From Candidatus Latescibacterota bacterium (lineage in GTDB: Bacteria; Latescibacterota; UBA2968; UBA8231), in the NCBI GenBank assembly GCA_965223905.1, contig CBDCXV010000011.1, forward strand, positions 928,001 through 992,000: a DNA stretch of 64,000 bases, written 5' to 3'. The position numbers were made by a program, and so were the translations under genes. Shown here in pieces: positions 53,747-62,864 of the stretch. Under the pieces are notes generated by a model. The model searched no databases. It was given only the letters and a program-made list of their open reading frames with translations, and was not told the origin of the DNA. Numbering within the stretch: the first letter of the stretch is position 1; every line of letters starts with the position of its first letter.

Positions 53747-55306
53747 ATGCGGCAGAAAGCAGATAAAGCTCCATCACCCCTCCGGCGACTCGCCTGTCCG
53801 CTTCTCGCCGGCATGCTGGCTGCCGCGGGACCTGCTGCTTCCCAGCCGCAGCTGACAGCCCACCACGAATACCAGTTCGGCAACCTGCCCGGGTCGGAGC
53901 CCGGCGATCTGCGCACGGTCTACCAGCAGCTGAACTTCGGTTTCGAAACCTCGGGATTCCTCGCCAGCCTGCGCAGCGAGGCCTTCCGCTCCAGCGCCGG
54001 CGGGCGCGACTACTTCCACCTCGCCCAGAGATCCCTCTCCTACCGGCAGGGAGGTTTCGAGGCGACCGCGGGGACCTACTACACCCTCGTCGGCAGCGGA
54101 CTGCTGCTGCACGCCTTCGAGCTCCCCGGAGTCGTCACCGAAAACCGCGTCTCCCGGAGGCGCTACCAGATCATGCGCGACCTCGACGGATTCCAGGTCC
54201 GCTACCGCCGGGGCGACGTCGACCTGACGTTTCTGACCGGCCGGTCGGTCGACAGCGAGCTCGCCCCTGGCCAGAAGGGACCGGAGCGCCGCCAAGGCCG
54301 CGTTTCCGGGGGGGCCTTCAGCGCCCGTCCCGTGGCCGGCCTCGAGGTCGGGATGGGAGTCCTGGACTTCGACGGCGAAGAGCGCGGGGCCACCACCCAT
54401 GCCCGGGTCCGCTTCGGACCGCTGCTGAAAGCGCTCGGGCTGCCGGACTGGTACGGCGATCTGTACGGCGAGTACGCCCGCATCGATCCGGCCCTCGACA
54501 GCTGGTTCTCCCTCGACCGCGAGCACGCGCGGGCCCTCTACCTCTCCAGCACCTTCACCGGGGGGACCTGGGGGTTGAGCCTCGAATTCAAGGACTACGA
54601 CGACTTCAACTTTCCCGCCATCAACAACCCGCCGACACTGATCCGGGAGCACGAGGCATTCCTCCTGAACCGGCAGACACACACCCTGCTCCCCGACGAC
54701 GAAACCGGGTTTCAGGCGGAGCTGACCTGGGCCCTGCCGCGCCAGGTCGGGCTGATCGCCGCCTGGAACCTCGCCACCCGCCGGGGTTCCCGTCCCGGGG
54801 AGGAGGAGAAGTCGTTGAGCGAGTACTTCCTGCAGCTCGATTCCCCGGTGGGGGAGGAGCTGTACTGGCAGGTCTTCCTCGATTTCGCGCGCAGCCGCAT
54901 TCTCCAGAACGAGCGGCGGGTGACCGCGGGCACCCGGTGGGACTGGTCCGCGGGCTCGCGCTACGCCGTCGCCGCCGACCTGCAGTTCCAGGACGTCGAC
55001 CGCCGCTTCGGCAGCAGGAAGTTTCCCTACGAGAACCTGCTGGCCGCCGCCGAGGTCAGCCGCTTTCCGGCCTGGACCTGGTCGCTGCAGTTGCAGCGGT
55101 CAAACGACCCGCTGGAGGCCGGGGCCTCGCAGTCGGGCGCGACTTACTGGTGGACCCTGGGGGCGAGCTTGCTGTTCCGCGACGCCCACACCGCCACCCT
55201 GTTCGCCGGCAAACGGCGCACCGGTCTCGCCTGCACCGGCGGGACCTGCTACGAAGTGCTGGGGTTCGAAGGGATGGAGATTCGCCTTACGAGCAAAGTG
55301 CTCTGA
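53747..55306 (+). CDS. DUF6029-like outer-membrane beta-barrel protein
   Basis: Signal peptide; GTYYTLVGSGLLL, LEFKDY, NNPPTL; C-terminal GKRRTGLACTGGTCYEV.GFEG. Confidence 0.7.
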   Translation: MRQKADKAPSPLRRLACPLLAGMLAAAGPAASQPQLTAHHEYQFGNLPGSEPGDLRTVYQQLNFGFETSGFLASLRSEAFRSSAGGRDYFHLAQRSLSYRQGGFEATAGTYYTLVGSGLLLHAFELPGVVTENRVSRRRYQIMRDLDGFQVRYRRGDVDLTFLTGRSVDSELAPGQKGPERRQGRVSGGAFSARPVAGLEVGMGVLDFDGEERGATTHARVRFGPLLKALGLPDWYGDLYGEYARIDPALDSWFSLDREHARALYLSSTFTGGTWGLSLEFKDYDDFNFPAINNPPTLIREHEAFLLNRQTHTLLPDDETGFQAELTWALPRQVGLIAAWNLATRRGSRPGEEEKSLSEYFLQLDSPVGEELYWQVFLDFARSRILQNERRVTAGTRWDWSAGSRYAVAADLQFQDVDRRFGSRKFPYENLLAAAEVSRFPAWTWSLQLQRSNDPLEAGASQSGATYWWTLGASLLFRDAHTATLFAGKRRTGLACTGGTCYEVLGFEGMEIRLTSKVL

Positions 55307-55452
55307 CCGGCAGAAAACGCGGGACAGCCTCAATGGCAGCGCCGGTTGCCCGAGGGCCTCCGGATTCATTCGATCGGCAAAGGCTGCCCCGGCACCTGCC
55401 ATTTGACCGTACTGTAGACTTGGATCATTTCACACACCAGAAAGGGGGAGCA

Positions 55453-56202
55453 ATGGGCGAGACACCCGGCCGCAGAATCGAAACGGAGGGGGCATTCAAC
55501 ATCCGGGACATTGGGGGCTACCCCACGACGGACGGACGCCGGGTTCGGTGGCGAACCTTCTTCCGCGCCGACAGCATGCACAGGCTGACGGCAAACGACC
55601 AGCAGACCCTTCTCGGGTTCGGGTTGCGCACCGTCATCGACCTGCGCCGGACCCGGGAGCTGGCGGAGCTTCCCAACGTCTTCGCCTCCTCGTCGGAGGT
55701 GAACTACCGCCACCACAACCTCGTCGGCGACGAGCCCCTCCCCTATTCCATCGCGGACGGCACTCCTGCGGACCGGATCTTCGGCTCCTACTCCTCCTGG
55801 ATCGAGCATCGCGAGGAACAGGTGGGCGAGGTACTGGCGATCCTGGCTGGGCGGGAGGCCCTGCCCGCTCTTTACCACTGCGCCGGGGGCAAGGACCGGA
55901 CCGGGGTGATCAGCGCCCTGCTTCTCGAGCTCGCCGGTGTTGCGAAAGAGACGATTGCCCAGGACTACGGCCTGACGGCGAGGTATCTGTGGGATCGCTG
56001 GCAGTCGGAGCCCCCCGAGGTCGAAGGGGGAGCGGTCCTTCGCGACTGGCGCGACTACCAGCGCGAGTTCTGCCCGCCGGAATGCATGGTCAAGGTCCTC
56101 GACTTCCTCGAGGCCCGGTACGGCGGGGCCGAGGGGTTCGCCCGGTCCGCCGGACTTGGCGACCGGCAGATCGACAGCCTCAGGGTGGCCCTGGTGGAGT
56201 AG
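55453..56202 (+). CDS. Tyrosine-protein phosphatase (Y_phosphatase3 family)
   Basis: NIRDIGGY, VIDLR, HCAGGKDRTG P-loop, DY.LT. Confidence 0.92.
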   Translation: MGETPGRRIETEGAFNIRDIGGYPTTDGRRVRWRTFFRADSMHRLTANDQQTLLGFGLRTVIDLRRTRELAELPNVFASSSEVNYRHHNLVGDEPLPYSIADGTPADRIFGSYSSWIEHREEQVGEVLAILAGREALPALYHCAGGKDRTGVISALLLELAGVAKETIAQDYGLTARYLWDRWQSEPPEVEGGAVLRDWRDYQREFCPPECMVKVLDFLEARYGGAEGFARSAGLGDRQIDSLRVALVE

Positions 56203-56370
56203 GCTGTCTGCCGGCGATGTATCCGGCCCGTCGACGATGCAGCGAATTATGCGCAGCCCTGTTTGGGGGGCGCTGCGATGCCCGGCCCAATTGTTTTCGG
56301 GTGGAACCCCGGGGCCGGCCGAAGGTGCCCACCTCCTTCAGCGCCTGTCCGCCGGCGTCGCGCCGGAGGG

Positions 56371-57255
56371 TTACTTCAGCAGGGTAACCTTCCGGGTAAC
56401 CACCCGGCTTTCCTGTCGCACGGATGCGAGGTACACCCCGCTGGCGAGGGCATTCCCTTCCTGGTCGCGTCCGTTCCAGGTCAGGGAGTGCCTGCCCACC
56501 TCGAAATGCCCCGACCAGTCGCGCACCACCCGCCCACTCAGATCGGACAACACCAGGGTCAGCGGCCCGGCCGAGTTCACCGTGAAAGACAGCGTGGTTT
56601 CGGAATTGAAGGGATTCGGGAATGCCTGCCCCACCTCGAACCGGGCCGGAAGCTGCGGCGAAGCCGCTACTTCCGTGGTCACTTCCTCCACCTCTTCTTC
56701 CTCTTCCTCCAGGAATTCCGCGAGGTCCTCGAGAGAGGCTTCGATCGCCTCGCGGATCTCCCCGTCGACGAAGCGCTCGCCGAGCGGCCCGGCCCCGGAA
56801 CGATAGCGGACGATCCCCTCGTGATCGATCACGAAGTAGTAGTCCTGCCCGACGCCGTAGTCACTGCCTACCTGGGACCCGTTGACGAGCATCGGGTAGG
56901 AAGCCAGCCCGTCGTCGATCCACACCGCCTGGACGTTGGCGGGATCGGCGTTCCAGATGTCGATGCCGAGTGCAATCAAGCGGTCGCCCCCGTAGTCCTG
57001 CCATATCGCTTCGGAATTCGCGGCCCCCGCGATACAGTACGGTCAGGTGTTCCCGAGGATGTTGAGAAAGACAACCTTTTCGTCGCGAAAGTCGCCAAGT
57101 GAGACGAGCTGTCCGTCCACGGATTCAAGCTCAAATTCGGGGGCGATATCCCCGGCGACCACCTGCGCCTGGGCCCCGCCCGGCCCACCGACCAAAAATG
57201 CACTGCACGCGACCGTTACGGCCGCCCGCCATCGAGTCCTGTTCCTGGTTTTCAT
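56371..57255 (-). CDS. Secreted redoxin (AhpC/TSA-TlpA fold) selenoprotein, UxxC, with C-terminal FlgD-Ig/T9SS-like domain
   Basis: Signal peptide + APEFELESVDGQLVSLGDF...FLNILGNT-TGA(57043-45)-PYC, reading in frame into ORF 56371..56979; C-terminus AFPNPFNSET...WNGRD...ASGVYL...RKVTLLK. Confidence 0.82.
57018..57032 (-). promoter_or_regulatory. Candidate bacterial SECIS hairpin
   Basis: UCGCGG-GGG-CCGCGA stem-loop begins 10 nt after the UGA; G-rich apical loop 16 nt downstream. Confidence 0.6.
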
Positions 57256-57818
57256 TCGCTCCTGCCTTCCGTCGAATCGGGTTGCGCTGCCAGCAGCTCC
57301 GCCAGCTTGTCGCGGAGCCCGGTTTCGTCCCCTGGTTTGTACCCCACGTGCCTGTAAACTACCGCCCCTTCGGTCGAAATGATCAAGGTAGCCGGCAGGA
57401 CGGAGAGCTGAAACTGCTTCATCACCTCTCTCGTGTGGTCGAGCAGGACCGGCAGCTCTAGCCGGTGGCGCTTCAGGAAGGGCCGCACCTTGGGCTGATT
57501 GCGCGGCCCGTCGGTGTTCACGGTGTATACCCCGACCCCGCGCTGGCGGTATTCCTCGGCGATTTCCTGCAGCTTCGGCAGCGCCTTGATGCACGGCTTG
57601 CACCACGTCGCCCAGAAATCGAGAACCACCGGACCCTGCTTCAGTGCCTCCTGCAGGGAGAACTGCTCGCCGTCGAGAGTCGGCAGCGTGAACTGCGATT
57701 TCTGAGCAGCCGCGGCCGCGGCGGAGAGAAAAAGACACGATCCGATCGAGGCAGCCAGGGCCAGAATGCGGGACAGGGAACGGCAATTCGACGCGATGCT
57801 TCCGGATCTTCGCTTCAC
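57252..57818 (-). CDS. TlpA-family thiol:disulfide oxidoreductase (exported)
   Basis: Signal peptide; FTLPTLDG, DFWATWCKPC; stop overlaps the selenoprotein start (ATGA). Confidence 0.9.
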   Translation of the reverse strand: MKRRSGSIASNCRSLSRILALAASIGSCLFLSAAAAAAQKSQFTLPTLDGEQFSLQEALKQGPVVLDFWATWCKPCIKALPKLQEIAEEYRQRGVGVYTVNTDGPRNQPKVRPFLKRHRLELPVLLDHTREVMKQFQLSVLPATLIISTEGAVVYRHVGYKPGDETGLRDKLAELLAAQPDSTEGRSE

Positions 57819-59044
57819 TCGCCTGACCTCCGGGGAGCTTCGGCCGCCCCCGTATCCGCGGGAACCACGGACTGGACCAGTCCCGGCAGCATCATTCCCG
57901 GAGGCATCGGAATACAGCGCCCCAGCGATTGGTAGCCGCAAACCGTCCCGTCTATCCATGTGGCGCCGATCAGGGAGCACCCTTGGAACCTGACCCGCCC
58001 CAGGCGGGCCCCCTTCAGGTTTGCCCGGCGCAGATCGGCAGCGAAAAAGTTGACCTTGTCGATGACAGCTTCCCCCAGATCGGCCCCCACCAGCCGCGCG
58101 CCGTCGAAGTCGACATCTCCCAGGCGCGCGGACTTCAGGACCGCCCCGTCGAGCTCCGAGCGCACGAAGCGGGCCCCGCGCAGGTCCGCGCCGCTGAGCA
58201 CGGCGCCCCGCAGGGTCGCCCGCGTCAGGTCAGCTCCGGAGAGGTCGGAATCCTTCAAGCTCGTGCTGTCGAAGCTGGCGTCGCGGGCCACGGCCTTTCC
58301 GAGATCGGCCCCGGACAGGACGCTGGCGATCGCATCGGCGCCGGTGAGATCCGCCTTCCGCAAAGTCGCCCCTGACAGGCGCGCCCGGTTGACCACCGCA
58401 CCCTTCAGGTTTGCCCCGGAAAGCCGGGCCCCGGTCAGGTCCGCGGAGGTGAGGTCCGCGGCGCGAAGGTCAGCGCCGCCCAGGTCCGCGGCAGCCAGCC
58501 GCGCCCTCCTGAGATCGGCTCCGGACAGGCTGCAGCCGGGACAATCCTTGGAAACCACTATCGTATCGGGGCGTACGAACAGCGCCCCCACACCCCTGCG
58601 CCCCTCGCCCTGGGATACGCACAGATTGTACCGCCCCCGGGGAATCTCGGCAGTGGCGGACGTCGTAGCGCCGCCGACGCCGAGCAGAACCGCTCCGGAG
58701 GCATCGATCAGCTCGACCCGGCTCGAAGGGTGGGCCCAGGTTCTGATACGCAGGGTTCGCTGCGACCGGCGCTCGAAGACCAGGGGAATCACGTCCGTAC
58801 CGATTTCTCCCGTATCGCCGCGATGGGCCTGCTCCGCCTCCGGGCTTTCGAGGTGAAGGAGGACGACCTGGCCTTCCCTCGCCGCCGCCGCCCCGGTATT
58901 GCCGAGCGAGCGTTCGTCGAGGTGGCTGATCCCCGGAGCGTAGTCCCCCGGCTGGCCGGCGCGGGAGTAGCAGCCGACAAGGACAGCGGCCAGCAGCAGT
59001 GCGCTACCTGCGGTCTGCTTGCCAGGGGGAAACCGCCCTTTCAT
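57815..59044 (-). CDS. Pentapeptide-repeat lipoprotein
   Basis: Lipobox VLVGC; about 200 aa of A(D/N)LxG repeats bracketed by DCPGC and WIDGTVC...SLGRC. Confidence 0.88.
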   Translation of the reverse strand: MKGRFPPGKQTAGSALLLAAVLVGCYSRAGQPGDYAPGISHLDERSLGNTGAAAAREGQVVLLHLESPEAEQAHRGDTGEIGTDVIPLVFERRSQRTLRIRTWAHPSSRVELIDASGAVLLGVGGATTSATAEIPRGRYNLCVSQGEGRRGVGALFVRPDTIVVSKDCPGCSLSGADLRRARLAAADLGGADLRAADLTSADLTGARLSGANLKGAVVNRARLSGATLRKADLTGADAIASVLSGADLGKAVARDASFDSTSLKDSDLSGADLTRATLRGAVLSGADLRGARFVRSELDGAVLKSARLGDVDFDGARLVGADLGEAVIDKVNFFAADLRRANLKGARLGRVRFQGCSLIGATWIDGTVCGYQSLGRCIPMPPGMMLPGLVQSVVPADTGAAEAPRRSGE

Positions 59045-59324
59045 GTTTTGTCGCTCACCATGCAAGAGATGCCATGCCACTTGAAAACCGGTTGAGCAGC
59101 GCTCTCGACCGGATCGGCGTCGAAAAAATACACCATCGCATCTTCCCCCGCGCGCATGGGGACACGGTGCGGCCGGGAATCTTTTTGCCCGGCACCGGAG
59201 GCCGCATCCTCGGGAGGTCCGGCTGCAAGGCAAGGGGCGCCCTGGAGAACCGAGCCCACGTGCAGCCGACGCTTCAGAGCCCCTGGAGTGCCCGGGGGGC
59301 TTCCGTGCACCGGGATCGGCGCCG

Positions 59325-61538: not shown

Positions 61539-62297
61539 GGCTCCTCTGGAGAATCTGTGGGTGAGGAGGGGACGCTGCGGGGATGGGCATAGAGGAGGCC
61601 AAGGTAGCACAGGCGCATCATCCCCGGTATGTTGGGACAGTCCACCAAGACCGATCCCAACTACCTGTGGAGGGAATGATGCGCCTGATCACGGTACTCA
61701 ACCGGTGCACGACGTTCAAGCAGTTTGTGTTTGAGGGCAGTCATTTTGACAGGCACGGAAGGATGATGGTGAGGATCAGACCACGGAAAAATTCCAGGGC
61801 CGCGTGCAGCGGCTGCGGTCACTTGTCCCCCACCTATGACACGGCCACCGAGGCACGGCTGTTCGAGTTTGTTCCCCTCTGGGGGTTTCCGGTCTTTCTG
61901 GTGTATCGCATGCGCCGGGTTGCCTGCAAAGCCTGCGGCCGGATGGTCGTCGAGAAAGTCCCCTGGAGCACGGGCAAGCACCACCTGACCGACCTCTACC
62001 GGCTGGGGGCAGGGAAGTTTCTCCAGCGCTGGTGTTTCCGTACGATGAGAAGCAACATCGAACCCGATGAAAGACATCGCCAAGATGCTGCGGCGTCATC
62101 AAGAGCTCATCCTAAATTGGTTCAGGGCCAAGAAGCAGTTCAACAACGGCATTGTCGAGGGCTTGAACCTGAAATGGAATCTGACGGTGAGAAAAGCATT
62201 CGGATTCCGCACCTTCAAGGCACTCCAAATCGCTTCGTTCCATCAGCTTGGCGATTTACCCGTACCCCAATTCACCCACGAATTCTACTGACGAGCC
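61539..62297 (+). mobile_element. Internally deleted ISL3-family element
   Basis: TIRs GGCTCCTCTGGAGAATCTGTGGGTGA / reverse complement GGCTCGTCAGTAGAATTCGTGGGTGA; zinc-finger N-terminus (CSGCG...RRVAC..CG) joined to C-terminal NGIVEGLN...RKAFGFR; no matching TSD. Confidence 0.85.
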
Positions 62298-62299
62298 AT

Positions 62300-62864
62300 C
62301 AATTTTACCGACTACGACATCGACCTCTCCTCCAAGAAACGGGGCCGACGAAGACTGGCGCTTCGGGATACGGCTACTCACTTGGCATGGAGGCGGGCCG
62401 CCGTATCGCGTTTGGTGAAAACCGAAACCTGATACCGAGAACGTGGTTGGTTCACACCACGGGTTTCCGTGGACAAATTCACGGATCACGGATGTATATA
62501 TTCACGGATCACGGATGTATATGATGTATATGGTGAACGCGCGCGTGTTTTACCCCACGGCCGATCGCTTCGGTGGAGGCTTCGGGTTGGTGGCCGAATG
62601 GACGCCCGTCTGGGCTAAAAGAAGCCTGTCACTGCGGGGGTGTCGCTGGACACCGAGCGGACCTTCCTGGGAGCCGGGACATCCGTTCTGGTATCGGGAG
62701 AGAGGCTGATCTCCGAAGCCGCGAAAAACAGCCTGCTCCTGGGTCTGAGCGGCACCTATCGCCAGGGCCGCTTCGCCCTCGGGGTCGAGACCTCAGCCGG
62801 GGCGGCTTTGGGATCCGGCCTCATGGAATACTCCGGGTTCCTCCATTTCGGAGTACGGTTTTAG
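62300..62864 (+). pseudogene. Autotransporter-like beta-barrel C-terminal remnant
   Basis: GYGYSLGMEAGRRI...LIPRTW...SVDKFTD...; terminal YSGFLHFGVRF; several frameshifts; truncated at the ISL3 end. Confidence 0.6.
62477..62531. repeat. Nested tandem duplications (23-bp ATTCACGGATCACGGATGTATAT x2, plus an extra GATGTATAT)
   Basis: Read directly from the sequence. Confidence 0.85.

Follow-up and report, generated by a model that had tools for sequence, protein, structure and literature searches.

A probable UxxC selenoprotein redoxin with a type IX secretion sorting domain, split at its UGA codon in public gene annotations

On the minus strand of a 64,000-nucleotide stretch of DNA from a Candidatus Latescibacterota bacterium (hereafter the window; contig CBDCXV010000011.1, positions 928,001 to 992,000) lies a gene that, on comparison with its relatives, is very probably a real, mis-annotated selenoprotein gene encoding a redoxin. 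It occupies 56371..57255, comprising 294 codons and a TAA stop (56373..56371), and begins at an ATG (57255..57253) that has AGGAG 3 nucleotides (nt) upstream. A single in-frame TGA (57045..57043) falls at residue 71, within L-G-N-T-U-P-Y-C (GNT-U-PYC), where the predicted selenocysteine (Sec) would take the first position of a UxxC motif. Translation with table 11 breaks the gene into a 202-residue open reading frame (ORF; 56371..56979) and the tail of another ORF (57043..57786). An initial annotation, made from the sequence alone, had proposed that these two fragments form one frame interrupted by a lone TGA at the first cysteine (Cys) position of a CxxC motif, and this is the arrangement that we find.

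The read-through product combines several modules, all encoded on the minus strand. Residues 1-31 (57163..57255) read by eye as a signal-peptide-like N-terminus, having a basic n-region, a hydrophobic core and AQA-Q, and they are followed by a thioredoxin-fold redoxin domain (residues 35-152; 56800..57153) that is recognised by Pfam AhpC-TSA and Redoxin as well as by a structural model and Foldseek. The UGA at 57043..57045 is interpreted as Sec at residue 71 (U71), the first residue of UxxC, from comparison of this column across homologs, and a candidate selenocysteine insertion sequence (SECIS) hairpin lies just downstream at 57018..57032, inside the codons for I-A-G-A-A. A long helix and an acidic linker modelled at low confidence (residues ~164-205; 56641..56766), the latter containing EEEEEEVEE, lead into a C-terminal beta-sandwich (residues 212-294; 56374..56622) that resembles both the type A sorting domain of the type IX secretion system (T9SS) and FlgD-Ig-like domains, as judged from TIGR04183, FlgD_ig and the model, and that carries PNPFN ... 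SGVY ... KVTLLK. Pfam scores for the read-through product are 48.9 bits for AhpC-TSA, 41.3 bits for Redoxin (residues 34-152) and 35.6 bits for FlgD_ig; of the parts listed in the initial annotation, the translated frame contains a signal-peptide-like N-terminus, the acidic linker and the PNPFN...SGVY...K.TLLK tail. A promoter/terminator scan returned no promoter-like site, and terminator-like sites at chance level.

The evidence that the UGA is decoded comes first from its conservation. A protein search of 132 genomes of the same class gave 1796 matches, of which 150 were listed; 77 of these span residue 71, and 76 of the 77 contain exactly one in-frame TGA, the remaining one containing none. 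Because the match list is partial, the genome counts drawn from it are lower bounds: among the matches listed, copies with TGA occur in at least 54 of the 132 genomes, often as several copies, with at least 52 of 76 genomes in the family that includes the present genome (G000), at least 2 of 3 in a second family, and no TGA copy among the matches listed for a third and a fourth (f1 to f4, respectively). When 73 of the 77 spanning copies were retrieved and aligned (four were left out), the Sec column held TGA in 72 and TGC in one, from genome G003, and the Cys at +3 was invariant; the two residues between them vary (PY, PF, SH, PA, HF and others). TGA is thereby kept in copies spanning 35-100% identity, the sequence on both of its sides is conserved down to ~35% identity, and all 30 full-length relatives share the same frame with one TGA. 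Across 20 full-length sequences (34-83% identity), invariant residues sit before the TGA (G35, A38, F41, L43, G48, L53, V61 and G68) and after it (C74, A78, E82, W85 and others), which argues that both halves are selected as one protein.

Protein databases tell the complementary side of this pattern. Searching a large protein database recovered ~38 close homologs (59-99% identity), all of 162-219 residues and covering 55-74% of the query; every one begins after the TGA and none is full-length, in keeping with the earlier proposal that standard gene callers would split the 294-residue product. These entries are filed as truncated "T9SS sorting domain" or hypothetical proteins, one being named "T9SS type A sorting domain-containing protein". 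When 1.84 billion representatives were searched with a profile, 34 among the top 150 matched it almost end to end in one stretch. These distant full-length homologs, having the same architecture at 24-35% identity, carry CxxC in the Sec column in 34 of 34 cases; TIGR04183 is present in all 35 rows of their alignment. The expectation that homologs would show TGA or Cys at this column therefore holds (TGA in 72/73, Cys in 1/73 and in the 34 distant proteins), and on this comparison the predicted Sec copies and the Cys homologs are a classical Sec/Cys pairing. A quick maximum-likelihood tree of 105 redoxin domains (145 columns, unrooted, many forks open) is sampled unevenly, its Sec copies being taken from the genomic DNA of a single class and its Cys copies from called proteins worldwide. 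The 70 Sec rows form three well-supported clades that share one side of the midpoint with 5 Cys rows; the other 30 Cys rows lie opposite, and the Sec/Cys label changes at least three times. A search of genome contigs for related loci yielded only tail-only matches or ordinary Cys redoxins of other phyla.

Independent assemblies retain the codon as well. Contigs spanning 57043-57045 without difference were found in X3 (record 8, covering 56780-57329) and X5 (records 16 and 17), from two other studies, and an RNA-library contig (X13 record 4, covering 56928-57135) likewise keeps TGA, so that the codon is not replaced by TGC or TGT in any of these data. The runs X11 and X13, which are metatranscriptomic and labelled 'sponge metagenome', contain contigs near-identical to the gene parts 56300-56722, 56758-56991 and 56928-57135. 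These constitute no more than a weak hint of expression, as contigs from RNA libraries are no proof of transcription. Of the runs that match part of the stretch (X10-X21), X11 and X13 were the two compared in detail, and none was taken as evidence of habitat.

Several of the genomes carry more than one copy of the gene. Tandem redoxin-gene copies occur at G003:C178:1052-3332 (L108), G084:C154 (L104) and G001:C2:5186892-5189745 (L115), and the family is expanded to at least four copies in single genomes such as G063. In G003 a Cys copy (C-K-Y-C) that retains a similar short hairpin stands beside a Sec copy (U-T-Y-C), and the sequences of this pair suggest a recent Sec/Cys switch after duplication. 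One G063 match (G063:C1:4136423-4137229, L076) has a TAG in addition to the TGA and could be aligned only over the portion that starts at the Sec codon, which may mean that the copy is decaying.

The genome encodes what Sec decoding would require. Within its 7.9 Mb in 11 contigs, selA (541 bits), selB (321.6 bits; 344.6 summed) and selD (367 bits) all score above their cut-offs, and a tRNA-Sec is found at 72.6 bits, which ARAGORN reports as tRNA-SeC(tca) with anticodon TCA; the machinery whose presence had been the first check proposed for this locus is therefore complete. Other genes of the genome carry the same codon at their known Sec sites: selD itself has an in-frame TGA in C-G-U-A-A-K (G000:C10:1272233-1273156, L015), and two near-identical genes resembling the formate dehydrogenase alpha subunit have TGA in C-S-R-A-U-H-A-P (G000:C10:10525-11259, L127, and G000:C5:718-1437, L128). 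The second of these lies on a short contig and may be a duplicate or assembly redundancy. Across the class, selA was found in 125 of 132 genomes, including all 54 with a TGA copy, and none of the 7 genomes lacking selA is among those 54; as almost every genome of the class has the Sec trait, this co-occurrence agrees with Sec use but is weak evidence for it.

Downstream of the UGA, the candidate SECIS hairpin consists of a 5' arm UCGCGG (57032..57027), a loop GGG (57026..57024) and a 3' arm CCGCGA (57023..57018) on the minus strand. The perfect 6-bp stem and G-rich loop described in the initial annotation are present, and its figure of 16 nt proves to be the distance from the UGA to the loop, the stem itself beginning after a spacer of 10 nt. 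In the bacterial SECIS model the apical loop lies 16-37 nt after the UGA and has a G in its first two positions. Two further hairpins of the same genome offer a comparison, that of selD (CGAGCCC-GGUC-GGGCUCG) sharing the 10-nt spacer of the redoxin gene and that of the fdhA-like genes (GGUUGCC-GGUCU-GGCAGCC, fdhF-type) having a spacer of 11 nt.

Support for the hairpin comes from comparison of homologs; the copy in the window, taken alone, is statistically indistinguishable from chance. In each of the three deep clades a hairpin occupies the same place with different sequences that encode different peptides, including UCGCGG-AGG-CCGCGA (peptide AEAA), CUCUCG-CGUGC-CGAGAG (LSRAES), UCUCGGA-GGC-UCCGAGA (ISEAPR), AGGCGG-AGG-CCGCCU (KAEAAS) and ACGGA-CGG-UCCGU (TDGPS), and copies encoding RAAAPD likewise have a short hairpin there. 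AT-rich relatives (e.g. L061) retain the codons GCG GAG GCC GCG despite A or T in neighbouring third positions. Over 53 distinct sequences, 87.1% of the cells of the 6-pair structure can pair, compared with 30-56% (maximum 55.7%) after sliding the partner. Covariation scores 0.223, against 0.110 in shuffles (0.223 was reached in none of 500), and compensatory changes alter three pairs on both sides (20 cells). Set against synonymous recodings of themselves, the 39 distinct segments from TGA copies all fall in the lower tail: the fraction of recodings that fold at least as well has a median of 0.056 and a maximum of 0.294, and is 0.05 or less in 18 of the 39.

A number of observations weigh against reading this element as a SECIS. 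The window copy folds at chance level as a single sequence (z = 0.13 for 64 nt), and 9.8% of synonymous recodings of its 24-nt segment fold at least as well; the hairpin is short, with 6 bp and a 3-nt loop; and the pairing and shuffle statistics overstate the support, because they come from related sequences that also served to define the structure. RNAalifold found no consensus structure in 53 distinct 45-nt segments, and three minor hairpin types are shifted one base from register. Scanning 56300-58000 against Rfam (E up to 10) gave three weak unrelated matches and no SECIS family. Finally, the redoxin-gene loop (GGG here, AGG in most relatives) is without the GGUC of the selD and fdhA hairpins, and GU is missing in most copies. 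Because of this difference, recognition by SelB is a matter of inference: SelB would have to accept a hairpin with a GGG or AGG loop.

We next consider what the enzyme might do. An AlphaFold model built from 20 sequences has a mean pLDDT of 77.5, with ~88-97 in the redoxin domain and less than 50 at residues 1-29, and shows the long helix (164-189), a disordered acidic stretch and an all-beta tail (220-292). U71 follows strand 61-67 and sits where helix 72-76 (helix 1) begins, which is the classical active site of the thioredoxin fold, so that the domain has both this fold and a C(U)xxC at the expected position. The best Foldseek matches in the PDB were AhpE (a 1-Cys peroxiredoxin), ResA, CcmG, Bcp and the pneumococcal surface thioredoxin Etrx2, with AhpE first (E 1.5e-10, template-modelling (TM) score to target 0.81), and the best sequence matches among solved structures were 3hdc, CcmG/DsbE and ResA (E 2e-07 to 1e-05). 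Scores for the TlpA/ResA/DsbE families fall short of their cut-offs (ResA 28.6 versus 170; DsbE 27.3 versus 359), and the residue at -1 to the motif is T, N, S or I among the aligned copies, not Trp.

Two features speak against assigning the protein to either neighbouring family. The cis-proline of TlpA/ResA/CcmG is missing, its position aligning to Q-D-Y-Y in the alignment with 3hdc and CcmG, and no Pro between G134 and D144 is invariant in the 20 full-length sequences; the Thr and Arg of peroxiredoxins are missing too, G68 being invariant at -3 and no Arg being invariant. With all of these absent, the chemistry is not readable from either family. On balance we lean slightly towards a UxxC thiol-disulfide oxidoreductase acting as a disulfide reductase or isomerase. 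It is less likely, though a serious alternative, that this would be a Sec-containing thiol peroxidase, with Sec peroxidatic and C74 resolving, that clears extracellular peroxides rather than reducing protein disulfides: AhpE is the top structural match, AhpC-TSA scores highest among Pfam families, CxxC oxidoreductases typically have the cis-proline that is lacking here, and Sec resists irreversible over-oxidation. The invariant G68 at the place of PxxxT/SxxC, the lack of a conserved Arg before the VID strand, an invariant feature that is instead a CxxC-type dithiol, and best sequence matches among solved structures that are CxxC reductases argue against a peroxidase. Membership of a deiodinase-like family, raised by the G-x-T-U-P context and a weak NF038285 match, was rejected, as there was no PF00837 match at E up to 0.01 and the NF038285 score was 31.6 against a cut-off of 250. 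A contig of a Zixibacteria metagenome-assembled genome (L036:2958-3494) encodes a redoxin-like ORF whose F-G-S-F-T-U-P-P-Y motif contains an in-frame TGA; by its motif this is a deiodinase-like selenoprotein signature, and thus a family different from the UxxC redoxin.

The tail of the protein bears on where it would act. The tail matches TIGR04183, the model for T9SS type A sorting domains, at 34.7 bits (cut-off 23), and among the three T9SS parts sought in the genome, the PorU sortase (617.4 bits, cut-off 420) and the SprA translocon (607.6 bits summed, cut-off 200) were found, and PorU is followed immediately by a PorV-like gene (91.3 + 47.8 bits). The initial annotation's reading of a T9SS-type tail is supported by these matches, and we consider it probable, from such sequence features, that the protein leaves the cell by the T9SS. 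Against this stand the Pfam Por_Secre_tail (PF18962) score of 23.2 bits, below its cut-off of 27, and the PorV-like score of 91.3 bits, below a cut-off of 250. Both would suit a selenoprotein retained in the periplasm or at the inner face of the outer membrane, whose Ig-like tail serves as a binding or anchoring module and not as a cleaved T9SS signal; FlgD_ig outscores Por_Secre_tail in the tail, and the TlpA-like partner and DsbD-type electron source discussed below would be periplasmic or inner-membrane proteins. We regard such retention as unlikely, as TIGR04183 exceeds its cut-off here and is found in 35 of 35 members of the homolog alignment, PorU and SprA are above theirs, and ~50 further ORFs of the genome terminate in the same ~80-residue domain, as would be expected of a cargo tag.

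Readings that dispense with Sec altogether fare far worse. If a near-cognate tRNA or an altered code inserted Cys or Trp at the UGA, a conserved hairpin at SECIS distance would be without a role in a genome that has the complete Sec machinery and other Sec genes. In addition, TGA terminates both genes directly upstream, and there are no in-frame stops inside selA, selB, PorU or SprA; because TGA elsewhere acts as a stop, an altered genetic code is not the explanation, and we hold read-through of this kind to be very improbable. Least probable of all is that the UGA is a true stop separating a 70-residue secreted peptide from a 202-residue tail protein initiated at TTG 56979, as table 11 and public records have it, or that the locus is a pseudogene or an assembly error, given that the 21 codons from TGA to TTG are kept in frame in 73 copies, including the Cys at +3 and the AEAA..E..IW helix, that TGA persists across such divergent copies and independent assemblies, and that the 202-residue product would be missing half of the thioredoxin fold and any signal peptide. 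An altered code, a pseudogene, a sequencing error and a two-gene arrangement were accordingly rejected.

Genomic context provides a candidate partner. Directly upstream on the same strand lies a gene for a TlpA/ResA-like redoxin with the motif WCKPC (57252..57818; likely start GTG 57818, with GGAGG 8 nt upstream), whose TGA stop (57254..57252) overlaps the ATG of the selenoprotein gene by 4 nt (ATGA). Upstream of it, a pentapeptide-repeat gene (57815..59233, minus strand; a 472-residue ORF, Pfam 145.5 bits) ends in a TGA that overlaps GTG 57818 (GTGA), and 4-nt overlaps thus link three minus-strand genes in the order pentapeptide-repeat, TlpA-like and Sec redoxin. The TlpA-like protein has a V-P-A-T cis-Pro loop in addition to WCKPC, scores 87 bits for AhpC-TSA and 95 bits for ResA (below the cut-off of 170), and is 55-92% identical among relatives, being more conserved than the Sec protein. 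A lipobox in this protein (IGSC) was considered and dropped, as its Cys is not conserved in relatives.

In 15 of 30 loci compared, spread across the clade with the AEAA-type hairpin, the gene immediately preceding the Sec gene is the TlpA-like one, and the pentapeptide-repeat gene is common only to two same-genus relatives. A protein with a DsbD_TM domain is encoded elsewhere in the genome (84.7 bits). This linkage alone leads us to suggest, tentatively, that the Sec redoxin works with the TlpA-like protein upstream. Two points tell against such a partnership: the neighbour is absent from the 1.5-kb flanks of the other 15 loci, among them those of the USHC and LSRAES clades, and the outer membrane would separate a surface enzyme from a periplasmic TlpA-like partner.

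Taken as a whole, the locus is best explained, with a probability of roughly 0.85, as encoding a Sec-decoded, T9SS-exported UxxC oxidoreductase with a TlpA-like partner. In the first step, which the comparison of homologs supports well, SelB and tRNA-Sec would decode UGA71 under the direction of the SECIS hairpin 10 nt downstream. Sequence features then suggest that the 294-residue precursor would cross the inner membrane by means of its N-terminal signal peptide, that the type A sorting domain would deliver it to the T9SS (the SprA translocon and PorU/PorV), and that, once the T9SS had cleaved off the tail, a ~20-kDa redoxin with an acidic extension would be released or anchored at the cell surface. 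From its fold and motif, the exported protein would act as a thiol-disulfide oxidoreductase with a TlpA/ResA/Prx-like thioredoxin fold, U71 being the attacking nucleophile and C74 resolving via a selenenylsulfide. The weakest step, to which gene linkage points, is that the translationally coupled WCKPC TlpA-like protein would be the redox partner and would itself be fed by a DsbD/CcdA-type membrane protein encoded elsewhere. A fuller scenario, in which the selenoenzyme is a T9SS cargo that serves as a Sec reductase or peroxidase on, or released from, the surface, with Sec chosen against irreparable over-oxidation of Cys and with coupling to the TlpA-like protein, is possible, and we would put it at somewhat less than an even chance.

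Relatives of the predicted enzyme are known at several levels. Table 1 of a 2026 review (PMC13188914) lists a 'Prx-like thiol:disulfide oxidoreductase' (PF00578, UxxC/UxxU) and a 'Redoxin family protein' (PF08534, UxxC) as predicted selenoprotein families, and Table 1 of PMC9312934 lists the same, which bears out the earlier statement that UxxC redoxins are a recognised selenoprotein class. Under such a scheme of domain plus motif, the gene described here is predicted to belong to this known kind: it shares the AhpC-TSA/Redoxin Pfam domains, would likewise have Sec as the first residue of UxxC and bacterial SECIS-type decoding, and differs in its putative signal peptide, its acidic linker and its T9SS type A sorting domain. 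As the comparison is one of domain and motif descriptions, the present clade could be one of the listed classes. The text of PMC13188914 contains no word starting with 'secret' and no 'signal peptide', and no selenoprotein with a T9SS sorting domain was found in the literature searched, a body of text that excludes the supplementary tables of surveys, where member lists may be held. Curated selenoprotein NCBIfam models remain below their cut-offs (WAxxUGC_long 18.3 versus 300; deiodinase_rel, NF038285, as above).

Among Cys-based proteins, the periplasmic thiol-disulfide reductases TlpA/ResA/CcmG (DsbE; 3hdc, 2b1k, 3k8n, 1su9) include the best sequence matches, with TM to target of 0.76-0.84 and the first Cys of their WCxxC aligned with U71, whereas the present protein lacks the Trp before the motif and the cis-proline, has Sec in place of Cys and bears an added T9SS tail. 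Closer in architecture are unnamed database proteins (P0112-P0244) that share the putative signal peptide, redoxin domain, linker and TIGR04183 tail; these differ in having Cys for Sec, in their 24-35% identity and in lying, for 30 of 34, across the tree midpoint from the Sec copies. Etrx1 and Etrx2 of Streptococcus pneumoniae (4hqz, 2yp6), found among the sequence and structure matches, are likewise extracytoplasmic, surface-exposed proteins with a TlpA-like thioredoxin fold, and differ in being Gram-positive, lipid-anchored and Cys-based without a T9SS tail. Etrx1 and Etrx2 reduce the surface methionine sulfoxide reductase.

These findings correct a systematic annotation error, in that public gene calls treat the UGA as a stop and retain only 160-220 residues from the C-terminal part, and would add to the bacterial selenoproteome a lineage-wide family with copies in at least 54 of the class's 132 genomes. 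Export by the T9SS would place Sec chemistry beyond the outer membrane, a location absent from the selenoprotein reviews searched. Furthermore, the conserved pairing with a canonical TlpA-like gene offers a testable two-protein redox module and, if true, would represent a route by which reducing power reaches the outer surface of a diderm bacterium. The hairpin variants provide a natural mutational series for the minimal requirements of a bacterial SECIS.

The wider neighbourhood in the window contains genes on the opposite strand. A gene for a DUF6029 protein (53747-55306, plus strand; 59 bits) and one for a Y_phosphatase3 tyrosine phosphatase (54937-56202, plus strand; 188 bits) both run towards the Sec gene's 3' end, and as the listed phosphatase ORF overlaps the DUF6029 gene, its true start is probably later. 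On the other side, an ORF at 61583-62524 (plus strand) carries an ISL3-type transposase zinc ribbon (33.6 bits), which points to a mobile element ~4 kb from the operon.

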